64,000 nucleotides of DNA. Source: Oscillospiraceae bacterium. GTDB lineage: Bacteria; Bacillota; Clostridia; Oscillospirales; CAG-272. The notes under the pieces are model-generated. The model searched no databases. It saw nothing but the letters and a program-made list of their open reading frames with translations, and had not been told where the DNA came from. The DNA lies in the NCBI GenBank assembly GCA_015063685.1, contig SVTR01000006.1, forward strand, positions 7,852 through 71,851. Reading direction: 5' to 3'. Of this stretch, positions 2,442-31,565 are shown one piece after another. The first letter of the stretch is position 1. Each line of letters begins with the position of its first letter. Made by a program: the position numbers and the translations under genes.

Positions 2442-3122
2442 ATGACAGCACCTATCCGCGAGCCGGTGATCCTATGCGAGGACAAGCACCTGCTCCTGGT
2501 CTCCAAGCCTCAGGGGATGCCCTCACAGCCCGACCCGTCGGGGCAGGCAAGTCTGCTGACATATTTGGCTGAAAGATACCCCCAAGCGGGCTTGGTTCAC
2601 CGTCTGGATACCCCTACGGGCGGGGTTATGGTCTTTGCCAGGACCCCAGCCATGACGGGAAAGCTGGCGGCCTTGTTTGGTGACCATGAGTGCTATGAGA
2701 AGATCTATCTGGCCGTCTTATCAGCCCCGCCTGCCGAGGCTCACGGGGTCTTGGAGGACTATCTCTACCACGACAAGCGGCAAAATAAAGCCTTCGTGGT
2801 GACCCCAGCCGCCGACGGTACCCTCCGCAAGGGAGCCAAGGCCGCCAAGCTGACCTACGAGGTGCTGGAGACCCTGCCCGACGGCCTGACCCTGGTGAGG
2901 ATCAAGCTTCACACGGGGCGCACCCACCAGATCCGTATCCAGTTTGCCTCCCGCGGCTGTCCCGTGGCAGGGGATGGCAAGTACGGTAGCCGTGTCAAAT
3001 GCTCCTTCATCGCCCTGTGGTCGCATCGTCTGACCTTTGTTCACCCCGTGACGGGGAAGACGGTCAGCGCGGAGTCCACGCCGCCTGCGGACGTTGAGCC
3101 GTGGGGGAGGTTTGGGGGATAA
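2442..3122 (+). CDS. RluA-family pseudouridine synthase
   Basis: In-frame ATG at 2442. Contains LLLVSKPQGMPSQP and the catalytic HRLDTPTGGVMVFA motif, plus HTGRTHQIRIQF. Confidence 0.85.
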   Translation: MTAPIREPVILCEDKHLLLVSKPQGMPSQPDPSGQASLLTYLAERYPQAGLVHRLDTPTGGVMVFARTPAMTGKLAALFGDHECYEKIYLAVLSAPPAEAHGVLEDYLYHDKRQNKAFVVTPAADGTLRKGAKAAKLTYEVLETLPDGLTLVRIKLHTGRTHQIRIQFASRGCPVAGDGKYGSRVKCSFIALWSHRLTFVHPVTGKTVSAESTPPADVEPWGRFGG

Positions 3123-3322
3123 ATTGTTGTTTATGGGCGTTTACTGACCAACGAGGTCATCCTGAGCAAGGCCGCTGGCCGCGCCGAAGGATCTCTTTAT
3201 ACCTGTAAAAAACCATTGTCATAAAAAGGTTTTGCTTCCTGTGGGATCCTTCGACTCGGGCATCGCCCTCGCTCAGGATGACTGTCTCAAGGCGGGGCAC
3301 AACAACGCTAAACAACAATTTA
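3120..3322. mobile_element. MITE/BIME-like intergenic element, copy A (TAAATTGTTGTTTA ... TAAACAACAATTTA termini)
   Basis: Left terminus is 3120-3134; its TAA is the stop codon of the upstream gene. Right terminus is GCTAAACAACAATTTA at 3307-3322. Inside is an inverted pair of the 40-bp GTCATCCTGAGC...GAAGGATC module (3156-3195 forward, 3244-3282 reverse). Confidence 0.6.
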
Positions 3323-4014: not shown

Positions 4015-5343
4015 ATGCCATTTCCCAAGAACTTTATCTTCGGCACCGCCACCAGCGCGGGACAGATCGAAGGCGCCGCCCGCGAGGACGGCCGCACCCC
4101 CTCCATCTGGGATATTTTTGCAGAAACCCCGGGCAAGACCTTTGGCGGCGAGACCCCTGCCGTGGCCTGCGACAGCTACCACCGCTTTTTTGATCGAGAT
4201 CTACCCAGCCTTAAGGCTCTGGGCGTGGATTCCTATCGCCTGTCCATCTCTTGGTCCCGCGTCATGCCCGAGGGTGTCGGCCCTCTGAACCCCAAGGGCG
4301 TGGACTACTACCGCCGTGTCTTTGAGGCTTTGCTGGAAAATGACATCATCCCCAACGTGACCCTCTACCATTGGGATCTTCCCCAGGTTTTGGAGGAAAA
4401 GGGCGGCTGGCGCAACCGAGATTCCATCGAGTGGTTCGGTGAGTACGCCGATAAGATGTTTACCGCCTACGGTGACATCGTCCCCATGTGGTCTACCGTC
4501 AACGAGCCCATCGCCACCTATGTCGGCTACGCCCACGGCGGCTTTGCCCCGGGACACACCAACGAGGCGTGGGGAAACCAGGCGAGACATAACATCCTGG
4601 TGGCTCACGGCAAAGGCGTGGAGGCTTTTCGAGCCCATAATCTGAAGTCTCAGATCGGTGTGGTCATCGACATCTGGAAGCGTCACGCCCTGACGAACTT
4701 CCCCGAGGATATTGCCCTCATGATCGACCAGGACGAGCGCAACTGGAAGTTCTACTGCGACCCCATCCTGGCAGGGAGGTACAGCGACTACATCCTTGAG
4801 CATCTTGAAAAAGAAGGTACCCTCATGGAGATGCACCCCCACGACTTTGAGCTGACGAGCCAGCCGCTGGATTACTTCGGCCTCAACGTCTACAACCGCG
4901 TCCCCGTTACCGTCAACCAGCAAGCGCAGATGGACTTCTCCCAAGGTGGAAACTTCCTCAACAACCGCACCGAGTATTACCCCAAGGCGGTCTACGATGC
5001 CATCCACCTGCTCCACGATCTCTACGATATCAAGATCCCCATCTACGTTACCGAAAACGGCACCTATTTTGAGGGTACCGAGCCTGTGGCCGCCGACGGT
5101 ATGGTGCATGACGACGACCGCATCCGTTACGTCAGCGGTTTCCTCGAGTGGCTGGAAAAGGCCATCGACGAGGGCTTTGACGTCCGCGGCTACTATCTTT
5201 GGAGCCTCATGGACAACTTCGAGTGGTCCGCGGCCTCCAATTTCAAGTTTGGCATCGCCACCACAGATTTCGCCACGGGCGAGACCAAGTGGAAAAAGAG
5301 CGCGTATTTCTACCGCGACTTTATCAAAAAGATGAAAGCGTAA
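4015..5343 (+). CDS. GH1 beta-glucosidase / 6-phospho-beta-glucosidase
   Basis: FIFGTATSAGQIEGA near the N-terminus, TLYHWDLPQ, acid/base NEP (TVNEP) and nucleophile motif YVTENG. Confidence 0.9.
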   Translation: MPFPKNFIFGTATSAGQIEGAAREDGRTPSIWDIFAETPGKTFGGETPAVACDSYHRFFDRDLPSLKALGVDSYRLSISWSRVMPEGVGPLNPKGVDYYRRVFEALLENDIIPNVTLYHWDLPQVLEEKGGWRNRDSIEWFGEYADKMFTAYGDIVPMWSTVNEPIATYVGYAHGGFAPGHTNEAWGNQARHNILVAHGKGVEAFRAHNLKSQIGVVIDIWKRHALTNFPEDIALMIDQDERNWKFYCDPILAGRYSDYILEHLEKEGTLMEMHPHDFELTSQPLDYFGLNVYNRVPVTVNQQAQMDFSQGGNFLNNRTEYYPKAVYDAIHLLHDLYDIKIPIYVTENGTYFEGTEPVAADGMVHDDDRIRYVSGFLEWLEKAIDEGFDVRGYYLWSLMDNFEWSAASNFKFGIATTDFATGETKWKKSAYFYRDFIKKMKA

Positions 5344-5542
5344 ATTGTTGTTTAGTATAGTTTCGCCCCACCTTGAAATAGTCATCCTGAGCGAGGGCGA
5401 CGCCCGAGTCGAAGGATCTCGTGATAAACGAAAGTCCTTTTATGATCATGGTTTGGAGAGGCAGAAGGAGATCCTTCGGCGCGGCCAGCGGCCTTGCTCA
5501 GGATGACAGCGCGCGCCGGTCGCCACGCTAAACAACATTTTA
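5341..5542. mobile_element. MITE/BIME-like intergenic element, copy B (same element as copy A, opposite orientation)
   Basis: Termini at 5341-5355 (its TAA is the GH1 stop codon) and 5527-5542. The 40-bp modules are at 5381-5420 (forward) and 5468-5507 (reverse). The order of the two module variants and the central segment is the reverse complement of copy A. Confidence 0.6.
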
Positions 5543-7493: not shown

Positions 7494-7651
7494 AAAATTG
7501 TTCTTTGCGTGGGCTTACTATGAACCCGTAGGGGCGAACTGCGTTCGCCCGCCGTTCCCCAAAAAACTTTGCTTATCAATATACTTTTATTACGGGCGAA
7601 CACAGTTCGCCCCTACGACCACGTTGGTCAGAAATCCGCAAACAACAATTT
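7494..7651. mobile_element. intergenic element copy C (degenerate left terminus, GTAGGGGCGAAC-hairpin cargo)
   Basis: Left AAATTGTTCTTTG (7495-7507) and right GCAAACAACAATTT (7638-7651). The cargo is an inverted pair GTAGGGGCGAACTGCGTTCGCCC (7528-7550) / GGGCGAACACAGTTCGCCCCTAC (7594-7616). Confidence 0.5.
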
Positions 7652-8872: not shown

Positions 8873-9498
8873 TAAATTGTTGTTTAGAGTATTATCCGCT
8901 TTTCTGTCAACAGCGACAGAAAAGCTCCAAAAGAACGCCGCTTAGTGCAGAACCTACGGTTCTCCCTAAGAACCCAACTCCCTCGTGACGCACGCAGACC
9001 ACAGAGGTGGTCTGCTATTGCGTATTTCTTTTCAGCCACCAGCGAAAGCCCGCCCCCACGGCGGAGCGCCTCGGGGCTCATCGAAAAGCCAATTGACATG
9101 TTTCTGTTGGCCGAACAGGGGAGGTTCAGGGTCATGTAGCGAAGCTATAGTTCTGATGGCGAATGGACAAATAATATTGTTTTTTAATCAAAAAATCTCC
9201 TTTCGCCGTGAGAACTATGGATTCAATGCTATTTTTACTATTGAATTTTTTAAAACCAACTAAAGCTTTCTAAACAGTACGGTATGAGCCTCAAGGCGCT
9301 CCGCCGCAGGGGCGGGCTATCGGCGTTGGCTGACACAAAACACGCGATAGCCGCTCCACTCCCTTTCGGGGAGCGGCGTGCGTCACGAGGGAGTTGGGTT
9401 CTTAGGGAGAACCGTAGGTTCTGCACTAAGCGGCGCTCTTTTGGAACTTTTCTGCCGCCGTGGGCAGAAAAGTGGAAAGAATGCTAAACAACAATTTA
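8873..9498. mobile_element. 626-bp intergenic element copy D: two ~210-bp inverted arms around an AT-rich core
   Basis: Termini TAAATTGTTGTTTAG (8873-8887) and GCTAAACAACAATTTA (9483-9498). The arms 8873-9081 and 9284-9498 are imperfect reverse complements. The core 9082-9283 is AT-rich. Confidence 0.6.
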
Positions 9499-27992: not shown

Positions 27993-28052
27993 ATGAGATT
28001 CCTCCTTTACTGGGAGTTTGTTATTAAAAAATGTTTATCTGGGGATGTTTTA

Positions 28053-28334
28053 TAAATTGTTGTTTATCTTTCTAACGTCGATATGATAACTTTAGGCGAG
28101 GTTGCACATGGTAAGCCTTCCCTTGTAAGGGAAGGGGGACCGCGTTAGCGGTGGATGAGTAGTCACACAAAAGGTTTTTGATCTAAAAAAGCTTTTGTGT
28201 GTAAAGAAATTTGAGCATTTTCCTTCGGAAAATGTTCTTTTATCAGGCTACTCATCCGTCACTCCCTTCGGTCGTGCCACCTTCCCTCACAAGGGAAGGC
28301 TTTGGTTCTCGGTAACCCCCGTAAGCAACAATTT
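28053..28334. mobile_element. intergenic element copy E (CCTTCCC-hairpin / GGATGAG cargo)
   Basis: Termini TAAATTGTTGTTTAT (28053-28067) and GTAAGCAACAATTT (28321-28334). The cargo is an inverted pair GCCTTCCCTTGTAAGGGAAGG...GGATGAGTAG (28115-28162) and its complement (28248-28300), around two further hairpins. Confidence 0.55.
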
Positions 28335-28361
28335 GTCAGGGAACCAAACGAAACGGAAGAA

Positions 28362-29738
28362 TTATTCCTCCCCATCCTCACCCTTCTTTTTATCCCTCTT
28401 CACCTTAATATCCGGCTCGTCGCCCTTCTGCTTGATCACCATTTTGATGGGCGTACCCTTAAAGCCGTACACCTCCCGCAGGCAGTTCTCAATATACCGC
28501 TGATAGGAGAAGTGGAACAGCTCTGCCACGTTGCAGAACAGCACGAAGGTGGGAGGCGCCACCTGGGTCTGGGTCATATAATAGATCTTGAGACGCTTGC
28601 CCTTATCCGTGGGGGGCTGAACGCGCATCATGGCCTCGCCCAGCACATCGTTGAGCGCGCCCGTGCTGATACGCACGTGGGAGGACTCGTAGACCTCCTT
28701 GATGAGATCGTACAGCCCTTCGGTTCGCTGGCCGGTCTTGGCAGACACGAAAGCGATGGGCGCGTAGGGCATATAGGCAAGAGAAGTGCGGATCTTGTCG
28801 GTGAAGGCCTTGACGGTGGAGTTGTCCTTTTCAATGCTGTCCCACTTGTTGACCACGATGATGGACGCCTTGCCCGCCTCGTGAGCGATGCCCGCGATCT
28901 TCTCGTCCTGCTCGGTGATACCCACGGACGCGTCGATCATGATGAGACACACGTCAGCACGCTCCACCGCCATGTGGGCGCGAAGCACACTATACTTCTC
29001 GATCTGATCCCCGATCTTGGACTGACGGCGAATGCCCGCCGTGTCAATGAAGGTAAAGGTGCCGAGGTCGTTGACCACCTGGGTATCCACCGCGTCACGG
29101 GTGGTGCCCGCGATGGAGGATACGATCATGCGGTTTTCCCCAAGGAAACGATTGACGATGGATGATTTGCCCGCGTTGGGCTTGCCGATGACAGCCACGC
29201 GGATGCCCTCATGCTCGTCGCCGTCGTCCTCCCAATCGGCGAGGCACTCACAGCAAGCGTCCAAAAGGTCGCCCGTGCCGCTGCCGTGGATGGAGGAGAC
29301 CGCCACGGGATCAATGGTCAGCCCCAGCTCGTAGAACTCGTAAAACTCAAAGGGCAGGTCTCCCACACGGTCGCACTTGTTGATGCAGGGAATGATGGGC
29401 TTGCCGCTCTTTTTCAGCATGACGCAAATATCGCGGTCGGCGGCGGTCAGTCCCGTACGCACGTCGCACATAAAGATGATCACGTCGGCATCCTCAATGG
29501 CGATCTCGGCCTGTATTTTCATCTGGGACAGGATGATATCGTCGGTCTTGGGCTCGATACCGCCCGTGTCAATGAGGGACAGCACACGGCCGTTCCATTC
29601 GGTCTCGCCGTAGATACGGTCACGGGTGACACCGGGGGTGTCCTCCACAATGGAGCGACGCTCACCGATGAGCTTATTGAATAAAGTAGATTTTCCCACG
29701 TTGGGACGGCCAACGATGGCGATGATGGGTTTTGACAT
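28362..29738 (-). CDS. der: ribosome-associated GTPase Der (EngA)
   Basis: Internal start at 29738 (AAAGGAGA RBS). Two tandem G domains (GRPNVGKST and GKPNAGKSS) and a KH-like C-terminus. Confidence 0.95.
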   Translation of the reverse strand: MSKPIIAIVGRPNVGKSTLFNKLIGERRSIVEDTPGVTRDRIYGETEWNGRVLSLIDTGGIEPKTDDIILSQMKIQAEIAIEDADVIIFMCDVRTGLTAADRDICVMLKKSGKPIIPCINKCDRVGDLPFEFYEFYELGLTIDPVAVSSIHGSGTGDLLDACCECLADWEDDGDEHEGIRVAVIGKPNAGKSSIVNRFLGENRMIVSSIAGTTRDAVDTQVVNDLGTFTFIDTAGIRRQSKIGDQIEKYSVLRAHMAVERADVCLIMIDASVGITEQDEKIAGIAHEAGKASIIVVNKWDSIEKDNSTVKAFTDKIRTSLAYMPYAPIAFVSAKTGQRTEGLYDLIKEVYESSHVRISTGALNDVLGEAMMRVQPPTDKGKRLKIYYMTQTQVAPPTFVLFCNVAELFHFSYQRYIENCLREVYGFKGTPIKMVIKQKGDEPDIKVKRDKKKGEDGEE

Positions 29739-29818
29739 GGTGTATGGTCTCCTTTCGTTAAGGGGAATGAGTTGTATAAAAGTGGTTGATGTTTTGAACG
29801 AAAACATCAGCACCGGCG

Positions 29819-29918
29819 GTCATCCTGAGCGAGGGCGCCTACAATGCGGTCATCCTGAGCGAGGGCACCTACAATGCGGTCATCCTGAGCGAGGGCGCTG
29901 CCCGAGTCGAAGGATCTC
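29819..29918 (+). repeat. two 30-bp tandem half-modules plus one complete 40-bp GTCATCCTGAGC...GAAGGATCTC module
   Basis: GTCATCCTGAGCGAGGGCGCCTACAATGCG (29819-29848), GTCATCCTGAGCGAGGGCACCTACAATGCG (29849-29878), GTCATCCTGAGCGAGGGCGCTGCCCGAGTCGAAGGATCTC (29879-29918). Confidence 0.9.
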
Positions 29919-29942
29919 TTTTAATGAACCTTCGAGGATAAA

Positions 29943-30203
29943 TCATCCCAATTTGGATTCATTTTTGCTATTAGCATATTCTTTTTTTCTCTTCTCCAAC
30001 CCTTTAATTGCTTTTCTCGTGCGATTGCAGTCGAAGGATCGTGGAAGGCTTCGTAGTATATAAGTTTGTGAACGTGATATTTTTTTTGTAAATCCGTCTA
30101 TAAGATCGTGCTGGTGTTCATACAGGCGGCGGGAAAGATTGTTTGTAATACCGATATAAAGGACAGTATTGATTTTATTGGTTAATATATAGACATAAAA
30201 CAT
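29943..30203 (-). CDS. small GIY-YIG nuclease family protein (UPF0213-like), possibly degenerate
   Basis: MFYVYILTNKINTVLYIGITNNLSRRLYEH carries the GIY/YIG/Arg motifs. The C-terminal half is divergent. The gene is AT-rich compared with its surroundings. Confidence 0.75.
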   Translation of the reverse strand: MFYVYILTNKINTVLYIGITNNLSRRLYEHQHDLIDGFTKKISRSQTYILRSLPRSFDCNRTRKAIKGLEKRKKEYANSKNESKLG

Positions 30204-30212
30204 GATTTATTT

Positions 30213-30252
30213 GAGATCCTTCGACTCGGACAGAGTCCTCGCTCAGGATGAC
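30213..30252 (-). repeat. 40-bp GTCATCCTGAGC...GAAGGATCTC module (reverse orientation on + strand)
   Basis: The rc reads GTCATCCTGAGCGAGGACTCTGTCCGAGTCGAAGGATCTC. It starts 1 nt inside the stop codon of the DUF512 gene and ends 9 nt before the GIY-YIG ATG. Confidence 0.9.
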
Positions 30253-31565
30253 TACATTACCCCTAACATCTCACGCACGAACTCCGCGCCGTCGTTTTTG
30301 CCCGCCATCACGGGCACGCCCAGCTTCTTAGACAGCTCCTCGGGGGTCATATCGTCCAGGAAAATATCCTCCCCCGCGCGCAACGTATTCTCAGGGAAGA
30401 ACAGCACATCGCCCAGTTCCTTGCCCGCCAACTGCTCGAACATATCCTTGCCCGTCAGCAGACCCGCCACGGTGACGGACTCGCCGAAGAAGTGATTGAC
30501 GATCTCGTAAACATGGATGGTCAGCCCCTCCACCTGCGCCTCCAGACGCGCGGCCATGGCCTTGATGGTGGGATAGGCCGCCACACCCGTGCATATCGAC
30601 ACGGTGCGGGGTGCTTTGTACTCTGTTAAATCCTCCGCGAGGAAGTTCATCTCGTCCTCAAACTCGGTCATGAGGGAGGTGATCATGCCCACGCCGTTCT
30701 CGATCTGGGCGTAGCCCTCGTAGTAGTCCTCAGAGGGTAGGGGACGCCCCGCGCGGAGATACAGCTCGTCGGCACAGAAGAATTTCCGTGAGCCACAATC
30801 CTTCAAACACCGTGCCGCAAAATTCTCCACCATATCAATGATGGCAGCGGCCTCCTCAGCGGTGTAAGGGGTCAGAGGGTAGAGCTTGTCTCTGTGCTTG
30901 GTCAGCCCCGCAGGGACGATGGATACGCTTTCCAAGGCTTCTCCAAGGTTATAAAGATCACGCATGGAACGATACAGCTCCACACCGTCGTTGATGCCGC
31001 GGCATAAAACTAACTGTCCGCAGATGGTGATGCCAGCACGGGCCAGCCTCGGCAGATAGCCCAGAACCATTCCCGCCCGTTTATTGTTCATCATCTTGAC
31101 CCGAAGCTCAGGATTGGTGGTATGGACAGAGACGTTGACGGGGGAAATGTGCATCTCAATGATGCGGTCGATGTCCTTGTCATGCAGGTTGGTCATGGTG
31201 ATGAAGTTGCCGTGGAGGAAGGAGAGACGGCTGTCATCGTCCTTGAAGTACAGGGTCTCCCGCATCCCCTTGGGAAGCTGGTCGATGAAGCAGAAAATGC
31301 ACTTGTTCTGACAGGAGTGCTTCTTATCCATCAGCGGGGTCTCAAAATCCAGCCCGATATCGTCGTATTCCTGCTTGCGGATGACCACCTCGTAAGCCTC
31401 ACCGTTGCGGAGCAGGGAAAGGGTGACCTCCGTGTTGGTCAAAAAGAAACGGTAGTCCAGCACGTCGGAGATCTCACGCCCGTTGATGGACACAAGCACG
31501 TCCCCCGCCGCAACACCTTTTCTGGCCGCACGGCTGTTCTGTGCAACATCGGTAATTTTAACCAT
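30252..31565 (-). CDS. PDZ + radical-SAM-like DUF512 protein
   Basis: N-terminal PDZ (GVAAGDVLVSINGREI), a CQNKCIFCF cysteine motif and a long DUF512-type C-terminus. I recall this family sitting next to der in Firmicutes. Confidence 0.8.
   Translation of the reverse strand: MVKITDVAQNSRAARKGVAAGDVLVSINGREISDVLDYRFFLTNTEVTLSLLRNGEAYEVVIRKQEYDDIGLDFETPLMDKKHSCQNKCIFCFIDQLPKGMRETLYFKDDDSRLSFLHGNFITMTNLHDKDIDRIIEMHISPVNVSVHTTNPELRVKMMNNKRAGMVLGYLPRLARAGITICGQLVLCRGINDGVELYRSMRDLYNLGEALESVSIVPAGLTKHRDKLYPLTPYTAEEAAAIIDMVENFAARCLKDCGSRKFFCADELYLRAGRPLPSEDYYEGYAQIENGVGMITSLMTEFEDEMNFLAEDLTEYKAPRTVSICTGVAAYPTIKAMAARLEAQVEGLTIHVYEIVNHFFGESVTVAGLLTGKDMFEQLAGKELGDVLFFPENTLRAGEDIFLDDMTPEELSKKLGVPVMAGKNDGAEFVREMLGVM

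Follow-up and report, generated by a model that had tools for sequence, protein, structure and literature searches.

A probable Ssn/SRM locus with a frameshifted GIY-YIG nuclease gene in a gut Clostridia lineage

A stretch of 64,000 nucleotides from an Oscillospiraceae bacterium (contig SVTR01000006.1), referred to here as the window, contains a small cassette between a DUF512/radical-SAM gene and the GTPase gene der. The cassette consists of a GIY-YIG nuclease gene bracketed by inverted hairpin repeats. Judged from its sequence, the region is very probably an Ssn/SRM locus with a frameshifted nuclease gene. The gene is knocked out in the window by one extra A in a homopolymer run, and other strains carry it intact. 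The Ssn/SRM system has already been known since 2025, and the basic finding is not new. Population data, which are new relative to the available text of the paper on that system (PMC11893778), suggest in addition a recent movement of the cassette that was precise at its ends. This conclusion is less certain than the identification of the locus. No later work on Ssn mobility was found in the literature searched.

The Ssn proteins were described by Chenal et al. (2025, Nat Commun, PMC11893778), and the available text of that paper provides the background used here. They are single-domain GIY-YIG proteins of about 94 aa that belong to CDD cd10448 (GIY-YIG_unchar_3), and E < 1e-10 to Neisseria SsnA was taken as the criterion of homology. 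They bind a hairpin repeat, which is NTS (CGTCATTCCCGCGMAVGCGGGAATCYRG) in Neisseria and SRM more generally. Their activity is limited to single-stranded DNA, in which one strand is cut just 5' of the repeat; the site for N. meningitidis SsnA lies 3 nt 5' of CGTCAT. SsnA does not bind RNA, and the characterised relatives do not cut duplex DNA. The repeat is found nearby in 71% of Ssn homologs and on both sides in 42%. The authors likened the repeat-gene-repeat layout to an insertion sequence and compared it with RAYT/REP, raising mobility as a hypothesis only. For N. meningitidis SsnA, a role in limiting transformation was demonstrated.

The nuclease gene of the window was earlier taken, in a reading made from the sequence only, for a decayed gene of the UPF0213 type in which the catalytic Glu is replaced by Arg. 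The 86-aa open reading frame on which that reading was based is indeed present on the minus strand at 29943-30203. Six-frame translation places a switch of frame at an A8 run, 30080-30087: the first frame reads to GFTKK, and the next one continues YHVHKLIYYEAFHDPSTAIAREKQLKGWRREKKNMLIAKMNPNWDDLSSKVH* to a stop codon at 29921-29923, so that all residues past K41 are out of frame in the window as it stands. The Arg appeared at the catalytic position because the open reading frame had been followed past this +1 frameshift into the wrong frame. The corrected 93-aa protein carries an intact AIAREKQLKGW motif, and the supposed decay is reduced to a single frameshift of 1 nt. The alignment to the Pfam GIY-YIG profile, which had been proposed as a check, ends at profile position 56 with 39.4 bits (positions 1-56) for the uncorrected frame and reaches 67.5 bits over positions 1-77 of 78 after correction. 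This domain spans residues 1-74 of the corrected protein and is the only one found. An alignment of 20 homologs, with the window sequence frame-corrected, shows no variation at residues Y5, Y16, G18, R26, E63 and N75.

The corrected protein is 100% identical to a public protein, P0001, which is present on at least 16 public contigs, and the order DUF512, gene, der was found at all ten of the P0001 places inspected. Public copies are annotated as "GIY-YIG nuclease family protein [Clostridia bacterium]". Among 22 other contigs, the homopolymer run has the form A7 in 19, A6G in one and A5GA in two, and none of them has A8. In the window, therefore, either a homopolymer insertion of 1 nt or an assembly error must have occurred; the extra A may be an error of sequencing or assembly instead of a real insertion. 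Both neighbours of the frameshifted gene, DUF512 and der, are full length. The GC content of the gene is 34.6%, compared with 56-57% for these neighbours.

Membership of the Ssn family is indicated both by the sequence and by the flanking motif. A tblastn search of a plasmid collection matched two Neisseria gonorrhoeae chromosomes filed as plasmids (47.1% identity, E = 3e-17). In a pairwise BLASTP comparison, the corrected protein and the gonococcal gene gave E = 7e-27 over 85 residues, which lies within the published limit of E < 1e-10. The gonococcal gene is surrounded by canonical NTS repeats (CGTCATTCCCGC..GCGGGAATCCGG), and it is by these flanks that it is called an SsnA ortholog here, the comparison having been made with the gonococcal sequence. 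One of the two records (L096, NZ_CP119142.1, 1881119-1882573) has a length of 2.17 Mb and, despite its filing, is a chromosome. In its SsnA-type gene the conserved region lacks an in-frame ATG, and a nearby ATG at 594 is off by one base; this copy may be frameshifted too, or may use another start. The UPF0213 assignment was rejected. The best match in a sequence search of the PDB, to the UPF0213 protein BH0048, is marginal (E = 0.007, 19.8 bits) and contrasts with the 47% identity shared with the SsnA-type gene of Neisseria. In the NCBIfam search no family was reached, the group I intron endonuclease model TIGR01453 giving 23.2 bits against a cut-off of 56 and covering residues 4-34 only. The domain search gave no match to HUH families, and PADLOC gave no match to a defence system.

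The gene is flanked by inverted modules, as had been described earlier. On the minus strand, the order is as follows: the DUF512 stop codon TAG, the 40-nt module GTCATCCTGAGCGAGGACTCTGTCCGAGTCGAAGGATCTC, 9 nt, the ATG at 30203, the AT-rich open reading frame, an inverted module at 29879-29918, two 30-nt half-units, and the upstream region of der. The earlier observation that the DUF512 stop codon overlaps the module by one base holds, since the G of TAG is the first base of the module. The left module ends 9 nt before the ATG and is composed of a GTCAT tag, an ATCCT/AGGAT outer stem, presumed tandem G.A pairs and a GAC/GTC apical stem; the right module starts 2 nt past the corrected stop codon. 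The terminal inverted-repeat arms are 46 nt each and 89% complementary, and three 30-nt units stand in tandem at 29816-29905. The 16-nt module core GTCATCCTGAGCGAGG, with at most two mismatches, occurs eight times in the window compared with 0.02 times in shuffled sequences. In total, the 64 kb hold six full modules and two half-modules. The 30-nt half-units of the cassette also contain GTAGGCGCC.

The association of gene and hairpin extends far beyond this locus. A scan of species-representative genomes returned at least 598 relatives, of which the best 80 (50-66% identical, from more than 15 phyla) were analysed. A strict definition of the hairpin was used (GTCAT, a perfect 5-bp stem and a closing C); a looser first definition, which gave 30 matches against 15.6 in shuffles, had been dropped in its favour. 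Hairpins stand on both sides of the gene at 44 loci, on one side at 14 and on neither at 22. A hairpin thus adjoins the gene in 58 of the 80 homologs, and the density beside the gene is 4.85 per kb compared with 0.17 per kb at distances above 500 nt (29-fold). The sequence-only reading had pointed to relatives as a place to look for further module-flanked copies and had treated the gene and its inverted modules as one unit, which these counts support; they reproduce the Ssn/SRM association published in PMC11893778. Most of the 80 homologs have hairpins of the TGTCAT..GAGCG..CGAAGGATC type immediately before and after the gene. The commonest layout, found at 26 loci and likewise in the window, has the tags facing outward on both sides. 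Three loci (L013, L028 and L053) carry the long module variant of the window, and two homologs (L044 and L083) are flanked by canonical Neisseria-type NTS repeats, which links the NTS form to the long form of the window. The GC content of the ssn gene is below that of its surroundings in 78 of the 80 loci (L011-L090), with a median of -11 points, in hosts ranging from 32% to 67% GC.

Tandem arrays of half-repeats are a further feature of such loci. Arrays on the same strand were found within 350 nt of the gene at 10 of the 80 loci, and their frequency is 16 in 55 kb near the gene compared with 5 in 355 kb elsewhere (about 20-fold). Arrays of half-hairpins (GTCAT plus about 20 nt) stand beside ssn in L032, L041, L052, L055, L064, L069, L071, L088 and L242 (1330-1500), which belong to unrelated phyla, and a half-unit array also adjoins P0080. 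No description of half-hairpin arrays beside ssn genes was met in the available text of PMC11893778.

The modules of the window represent a long variant of the hairpin, 40 nt in length and with an interrupted stem. An (A/G/T)GTC tag is followed by a stem that opens with AT, and the tail is CTC. Under a structural definition (GTCAT tag, a 5-bp stem opening with AT, and closing ATC), modules are recovered on both sides of the gene, at distances of 9 nt from the ATG and 2 nt from the stop codon. The consensus of the long variant is GTC-ATCCT-GA-GC-GA-(variable apical stem-loop)-GA-G(T)C-GA-AGGAT-C. In our reading, the fold proceeds from an outer stem ATCCT/AGGAT through a G.A/A.G step, G-C and C-G pairs with a bulged T, and a second G.A/A.G step to the apical stem; we infer the G.A steps. 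A metagenome scan for GTCATCCTGAGCRAG..CGAAGGATC found at least 124 modules of 33-50 nt, at least 105 of them unique, on at least 120 contigs. The outer parts are constant in all the modules listed, and the centre is a stem-loop free in sequence and length. Among the unique modules listed, the apical stems occur in at least 33 distinct complementary versions of 3-7 bp. Among the matches listed, a homolog of the gene lies within 400 nt of only 4 of 73 assessable modules. Most copies are therefore solo, as for a dispersed repeat, which agrees with the earlier remark that the modules also occur without the gene.

Such hairpins could in principle act in RNA, as a terminator, an attenuator or a small RNA, with their association with the gene being incidental. 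Their hairpin-forming nature and their intergenic positions at gene ends are compatible with this. Nevertheless, no Rfam family was reached at the gathering threshold and a permissive threshold gave only noise, and a scan for consensus promoters and terminators found no match and no terminator-like T-run. The inverted copies in the cassette would place modules of opposite sense in one mRNA, the association with ssn holds across more than 15 phyla, and SsnA does not bind RNA according to PMC11893778. A role in RNA is thus extremely improbable.

The earlier reading had stated that the cassette splits the DUF512-der pair and had proposed a comparison of the intergenic regions in related strains. 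This comparison revealed empty alleles. In sister species, whose DUF512 is 79-83% identical, der follows DUF512 after 31-213 nt with neither a GIY-YIG gene nor a module, and the ribosome-binding region of der is conserved in these spacers. Empty alleles are also present in the same population, with a 72-nt spacer in L097 and, in L098 and L099, a 130-nt spacer containing two GTAG-type palindromes. The two genes are thus direct neighbours in sister species as well as in part of the same population, and the cassette does split the pair. Occupied and empty alleles are common up to ..GGGGT and diverge from 30258, which is the exact end of the inverted-repeat arm; they rejoin about 30 nt before the der ATG. 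The spacer at 29739-29815 is confined to occupied alleles, save approximately its last 30 nt, which are the ribosome-binding region of der. The last two codons and the stop of DUF512 (GTA ATG TAG) are supplied by the outer end of the cassette, and the C-terminus of DUF512 reads ..LGVM* in occupied alleles and ..LGVQ* in the empty ones (P0121 from L097, P0127 from L098/L099).

The empty spacers have contents of their own. In L098 (2369-2498), two inverted GTAG-tagged GC-rich palindromes, GTAGGGGCGGATTCTATATCCGCCC and GTAGGGGCGCATTCCATATGCGCCC, resemble a REPIN doublet of the other REP superfamily, and the 72-nt spacer of L097 looks like a deletion derivative. In the sister species, the spacer of L091 (3815-4027) holds a small inverted-repeat element with AATTCGTAATTCGTAAT.. 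arms, and that of L095 (3815-3991) holds GC-rich hairpins. The DUF512-der spacer seems to collect small repeats. The next interval, between der and obg (window 28000-28362 compared with L001-L005), varies as well: it is occupied by a 280-bp terminal-repeat element in the window, by NUDIX and DUF559 genes in some strains and by a gene of 401 aa in L002, and it is empty in L003.

Nucleotide diversity along the locus was determined in 22-23 cassette-bearing contigs, the window included. It is 8.3-10.6% in DUF512, where 30% of columns vary, and falls to 0.15% in the 57-nt segment of the left repeat (one variable column among 23 contigs), 0.37% in the gene (6 variable columns) and 0% in the stop codon and right repeat (no variable column in 45 nt, 21 contigs). 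It then rises to 0.89% in the spacer after the half-unit array and to 3.6-4.2% in der. The cassette, 385 nt in length, is almost invariant, whereas its flanks differ by 4-19%. Among the first 11 sequences, DUF512 has its last variable column at 30264, only 6 nt from the repeat end at 30258. Across the whole protein collection, the alleles of the gene are at most 3 residues apart, save the chimeric 99-aa P0243, and the next relative is 73% identical. The species with P0076 has zero diversity over about 400 nt against a background of about 1.2%, which gives weak support for the same trough; in the species with P0080 the background diversity is low and a trough would be uninformative. P0243 comes from an ENA contig of 563 nt and falls in the same 90% cluster; its N-terminal third is like the ssn of other species and is followed by the C-terminal part of this species and then a frameshift. 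Either recombination between alleles or a chimeric assembly would account for this structure. DUF512 is unusually diverse in the population, with pairwise differences up to 19% (L001-L006, L097-L099, L232-L241) and about 4% in der; in N. meningitidis, genes beside dRS3/NTS repeats were reported to be more diverse (discussion of PMC11893778).

The presence and absence of the cassette are incongruent with the phylogeny of its flanks. The DUF512 of L001, which has the cassette, is 98.4% identical to that of the empty L098/L099 and only 85-87% identical to that of the window and other cassette strains, and the empty L097 groups with the window and L003 by its flank. Between L001 and L098 there are 0 differences in nt 1219-1308 of DUF512 and 4 in the first 800 nt of der. 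The two are near-isogenic up to both edges, and therefore no donor tract entered with the cassette. The left edge of the cassette is located 5 nt 5' of AGTCAT, and in the outermost half-unit similarity ends 3 nt 5' of GTCAT; we infer that these ends are Ssn cut sites. The array is itself variable: when the full right module is counted as one, 19 contigs have 2 (six contigs), 3 (nine contigs), 4, 5, 8 or 9 half-modules. These observations are consistent with a cassette of recent origin, introduced into or exchanged at one and the same site of already diverged backgrounds, with breakpoints at its ends.

The earlier suggestion of a "mobile or homing unit" therefore survives in its first half, as the population data point to recent end-precise movement; classical homing is not supported. 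In a homing scheme, the empty DUF512-der spacer would be the duplex target of a free-standing GIY-YIG endonuclease, whose gene would enter it through double-strand-break repair. Such a process could leave an invariant cassette and a presence/absence polymorphism confined to one site. The protein, though, has 93 aa and a GIY-YIG domain only, with no DNA-binding domain, and reaches just 23 bits of the 56 required by the intron endonuclease model. No co-conversion tracts are seen in the flanks, nor is there a simple insertion with target-site duplication. Flanking hairpins with copies across the genome are not a known feature of homing genes, and characterised relatives do not cut duplex DNA (PMC11893778). 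Classical homing is very unlikely.

Two other explanations share the question of how the putative recent spread came about. The first, which is tentative, sees in the cassette an autonomous, end-precise mobile element that moves via single-stranded DNA intermediates, comparable to RAYT/REPIN or IS200/IS605 but based on a GIY-YIG enzyme. The ends would be defined by nicks that Ssn makes 5' of each outward hairpin, and the cassette, the module pairs in elements A and B (Table 1) and the half-module arrays would be products of this reaction. The trough of diversity between highly diverged flanks, with its change within 6 nt of the repeat end, the incongruence with flank phylogeny, and the occupied/empty pair L001/L098 with isogenic flanks all argue for it. 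So do edges that lie no more than 1-2 nt from where the SsnA cut falls by homology, the half-module arrays enriched about 20-fold at 10 of 80 ssn loci and variable in copy number here, the low GC of the gene in 78 of 80 loci, and the IS-like architecture hypothesised by the authors of PMC11893778. On the other side, GIY-YIG enzymes hydrolyse and are not known to rejoin DNA, so that a ligation or repair step by the host would be required. The gene stays at one locus in about 30 contigs; P0076 has one locus, and P0080 likewise where both neighbours are visible. Target-site duplication is lacking, empty alleles differ in sequence instead of being simple vacancies, and the gene is not recognisable in the centres of A and B. 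That the ssn-hairpin cassette is an active mobile element whose precise ends are Ssn nick sites is accordingly a possibility to be held with reserve.

The second explanation is a domesticated, essentially immobile host gene that acts on dispersed hairpins, for example by limiting the integration of incoming single-stranded DNA as in Neisseria. Low diversity would then reflect a recent sweep or introgression, with recombination breakpoints concentrated at hairpins. The single locus per species examined (P0001/P0241, P0076, and P0080 where both neighbours are visible) is in line with it, and no second genomic locus was found for the identical alleles P0001, P0241 and P0076. The P0080 alleles were at one locus in every contig long enough to show both neighbours. 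The limitation of transformation by N. meningitidis SsnA (PMC11893778), the distance of most module copies from any ssn gene, and the gentle gradient of diversity on the der side (0.9% to 3.6% to 4.2%) also agree with this explanation. A sweep by homologous recombination, however, should drag the flanks along, and DUF512 diversity is 8% to within 6-12 nt of the cassette. L001 and L098 share the same flanks with different cassette content, and the gene is dispensable, given the empty alleles and the frameshifted copy of the window. The immobile host gene is thus possible but doubtful.

The reading of the region as an Ssn/SRM locus, together with the recent end-precise spread of its cassette, has to be weighed against several observations. 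The published degenerate SRM pattern has 0 matches in the window, and single modules gain nothing over shuffles when folded as DNA with ViennaRNA (z from -0.7 to +0.5); the case for the hairpin is made by covariation in the apical stem together with assumed G.A pairs. Cleavage, strand choice and specificity for single-stranded DNA are extrapolations from the enzymes of Neisseria and Wolbachia. As the window copy carries a frameshift, the locus may be without activity. A comparison of occupied and empty alleles reveals no target-site duplication, and the empty alleles hold different spacer DNA and are not a clean vacancy. Every allele of the cassette gene in the databases (about 30 contigs) is at one locus. 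Look-ups by exact protein bias the sample against non-synonymous variants, a bias that is limited by the 90%-identity cluster and P0002, which hold only alleles 1-3 residues apart save P0243. Metagenome contigs may also be chimeric across the invariant segment.

On the model of Neisseria SsnA, the intact protein would bind the hairpin in single-stranded DNA, such as that present during replication, conjugation or DNA uptake. Cleavage of a single strand, a few nucleotides 5' to the GTCAT tag, would follow, and no action on duplex DNA or RNA would be expected. The cassette may have spread recently through the population by an end-precise process with breakpoints at or next to the predicted Ssn cut sites, and the dispersed modules (A, B and the solo copies) may be substrates or by-products of the same enzyme.

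Table 1. Features of the cassette, its neighbours and related repeats (window coordinates).
Feature	Position	Strand	Details
DUF512 / radical-SAM gene	30252..31565	-	437 aa; open reading frame list, Pfam families on orthologs
Left terminal inverted repeat	30213..30258	-	40-nt SRM-type module (30252-30213) + 6 outer nt (AATGTA)
ssn-type GIY-YIG nuclease gene	29921..30203	-	93 aa after removal of one A; +1 frameshift in window
A8 homopolymer run carrying frameshift	30080..30087	-	A7 in 19/22 other contigs
Right terminal inverted repeat	29873..29918	+	full SRM module, GTCAT tag on + strand from 29879
Extra half-modules (n = 2, 30 nt each)	29816..29875	+	outer 26 nt of terminal repeat + 4 nt
Array-to-der spacer	29739..29815	-	9-bp AT-rich hairpin (TGATGTTTT..AAAACATCA); no consensus promoter or terminator
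der (engA) GTPase gene, downstream neighbour	28362..29738	-	open reading frame list, Pfam
Core matches	3156+, 3267-, 5381+, 5492-, 29819+, 29849+, 29879+, 30237-		GTCATCCTGAGCGAGG, at most 2 mismatches
Element A	3120..3322	.	TA-flanked AATTGTTGTTTA termini; convergent SRM pair 3156-3195 (+), 3243-3282 (-)
Element B	5341..5542	.	inverted copy of A, 86% mean column identity; SRM pair 5381-5420 (+), 5468-5507 (-)

Elements A and B were earlier regarded as gene-less miniatures of the cassette. Both have the convergent module geometry. However, the TAAATTGTTGTTTA termini of A and B also bound elements with unrelated foldback cargo at approximately 8873-9498 and 28053-28335; the termini are therefore a separate repeat family that encloses the module pair in A and B. 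A remnant of the gene start had tentatively been seen in the centre of A. The candidate was rejected, since the resemblance of the centres of A and B to the gene lacks significance and is equalled or exceeded by 16-88% of shuffles. The inverted termini formed by TA and AATTGTTGTTTA recur at 8873-9498, 28053-28335 and also 7496-7650, where the cargo is long-palindromic and without an SRM module. This layout looks like a foldback family or one similar to miniature inverted-repeat transposable elements, with TA target duplication. The TAA stop codon of the upstream gene marks the exact start of element A, and the same holds for element B.

The locus is a clean natural experiment, with occupied and empty alleles in one population and edges that match the repeat ends. 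If the cassette is in fact an active mobile element whose precise ends are Ssn nick sites, Ssn would be the long-missing mobilising enzyme of the CGTC-tagged repeat superfamily. A GIY-YIG nuclease would then be seen for the first time to drive the spread of REP-like repeats, with half-repeat arrays as footprints of the reaction. The 40-nt hairpin escapes the published SRM pattern, so surveys that use this pattern would miss repeats of the long type. Ssn proteins are of interest as sequence-specific cutters of single-stranded DNA, and the protein described here together with its 40-nt site is a new candidate pair of enzyme and substrate.

There are several known systems with which the locus can be compared. 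The UPF0213 proteins (YhbQ, BH0048) are likewise small stand-alone GIY-YIG domains of similar length, with a sequence similarity that is marginal. Homing endonucleases of the I-TevI type differ in having a C-terminal DNA-binding domain joined to the nuclease, which a protein of 93 aa in total does not have. RAYT/REP/REPIN and IS200/IS605 share with the locus a small single-copy nuclease gene bracketed by inverted hairpin repeats. In these systems, as here, the repeat also occurs as dispersed singlets and inverted doublets, and its hairpins are recognised in single-stranded DNA. Nevertheless, the Y1 HUH transposase of RAYT and IS200/IS605 forms a covalent intermediate and can rejoin DNA, whereas a GIY-YIG enzyme only hydrolyses. 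The tag is GTAG there and GTC here, fold and chemistry are unrelated, and the resemblance is one of layout only.

The CGTC-tagged palindromic repeats, which include Neisseria dRS3, have no dedicated transposase (Di Nocera et al. 2013, PMC3733652). Like the modules of the window, they have an unpaired (N)GTC 5' tag, a stem opening with A-T/T-A and a short 3' tail, and they frequently form inverted dimers without an associated transposase. Their tag is CGTC/TGTC and their tail has 3 nt; their stems of 8-9 bp and loops of 4-5 nt contrast with a module that is longer and interrupted here, and Firmicutes are absent from the five phyla listed for them (PMC3733652). The closest counterpart is Ssn with its NTS/SRM repeats, as presented in the available text of PMC11893778. 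Most described Ssn systems are from Gram-negative hosts, whereas the host here belongs to a gut Clostridia lineage. The hairpin differs from the published SRM in its length of 40 nt, its interrupted stem and its variable apical stem, which is missed by the published pattern, and the locus differs from described Ssn loci in the variable half-repeat array beside the gene and in the frameshift of the window copy. What both have in common is a single-domain GIY-YIG protein of about 94 aa, with 47% identity to the N. gonorrhoeae SsnA-type gene; oriented hairpins on both sides of the gene that start with GTCAT and end with ATC; and repeats dispersed elsewhere in the genome, in an IS-like layout of repeat, gene and repeat.

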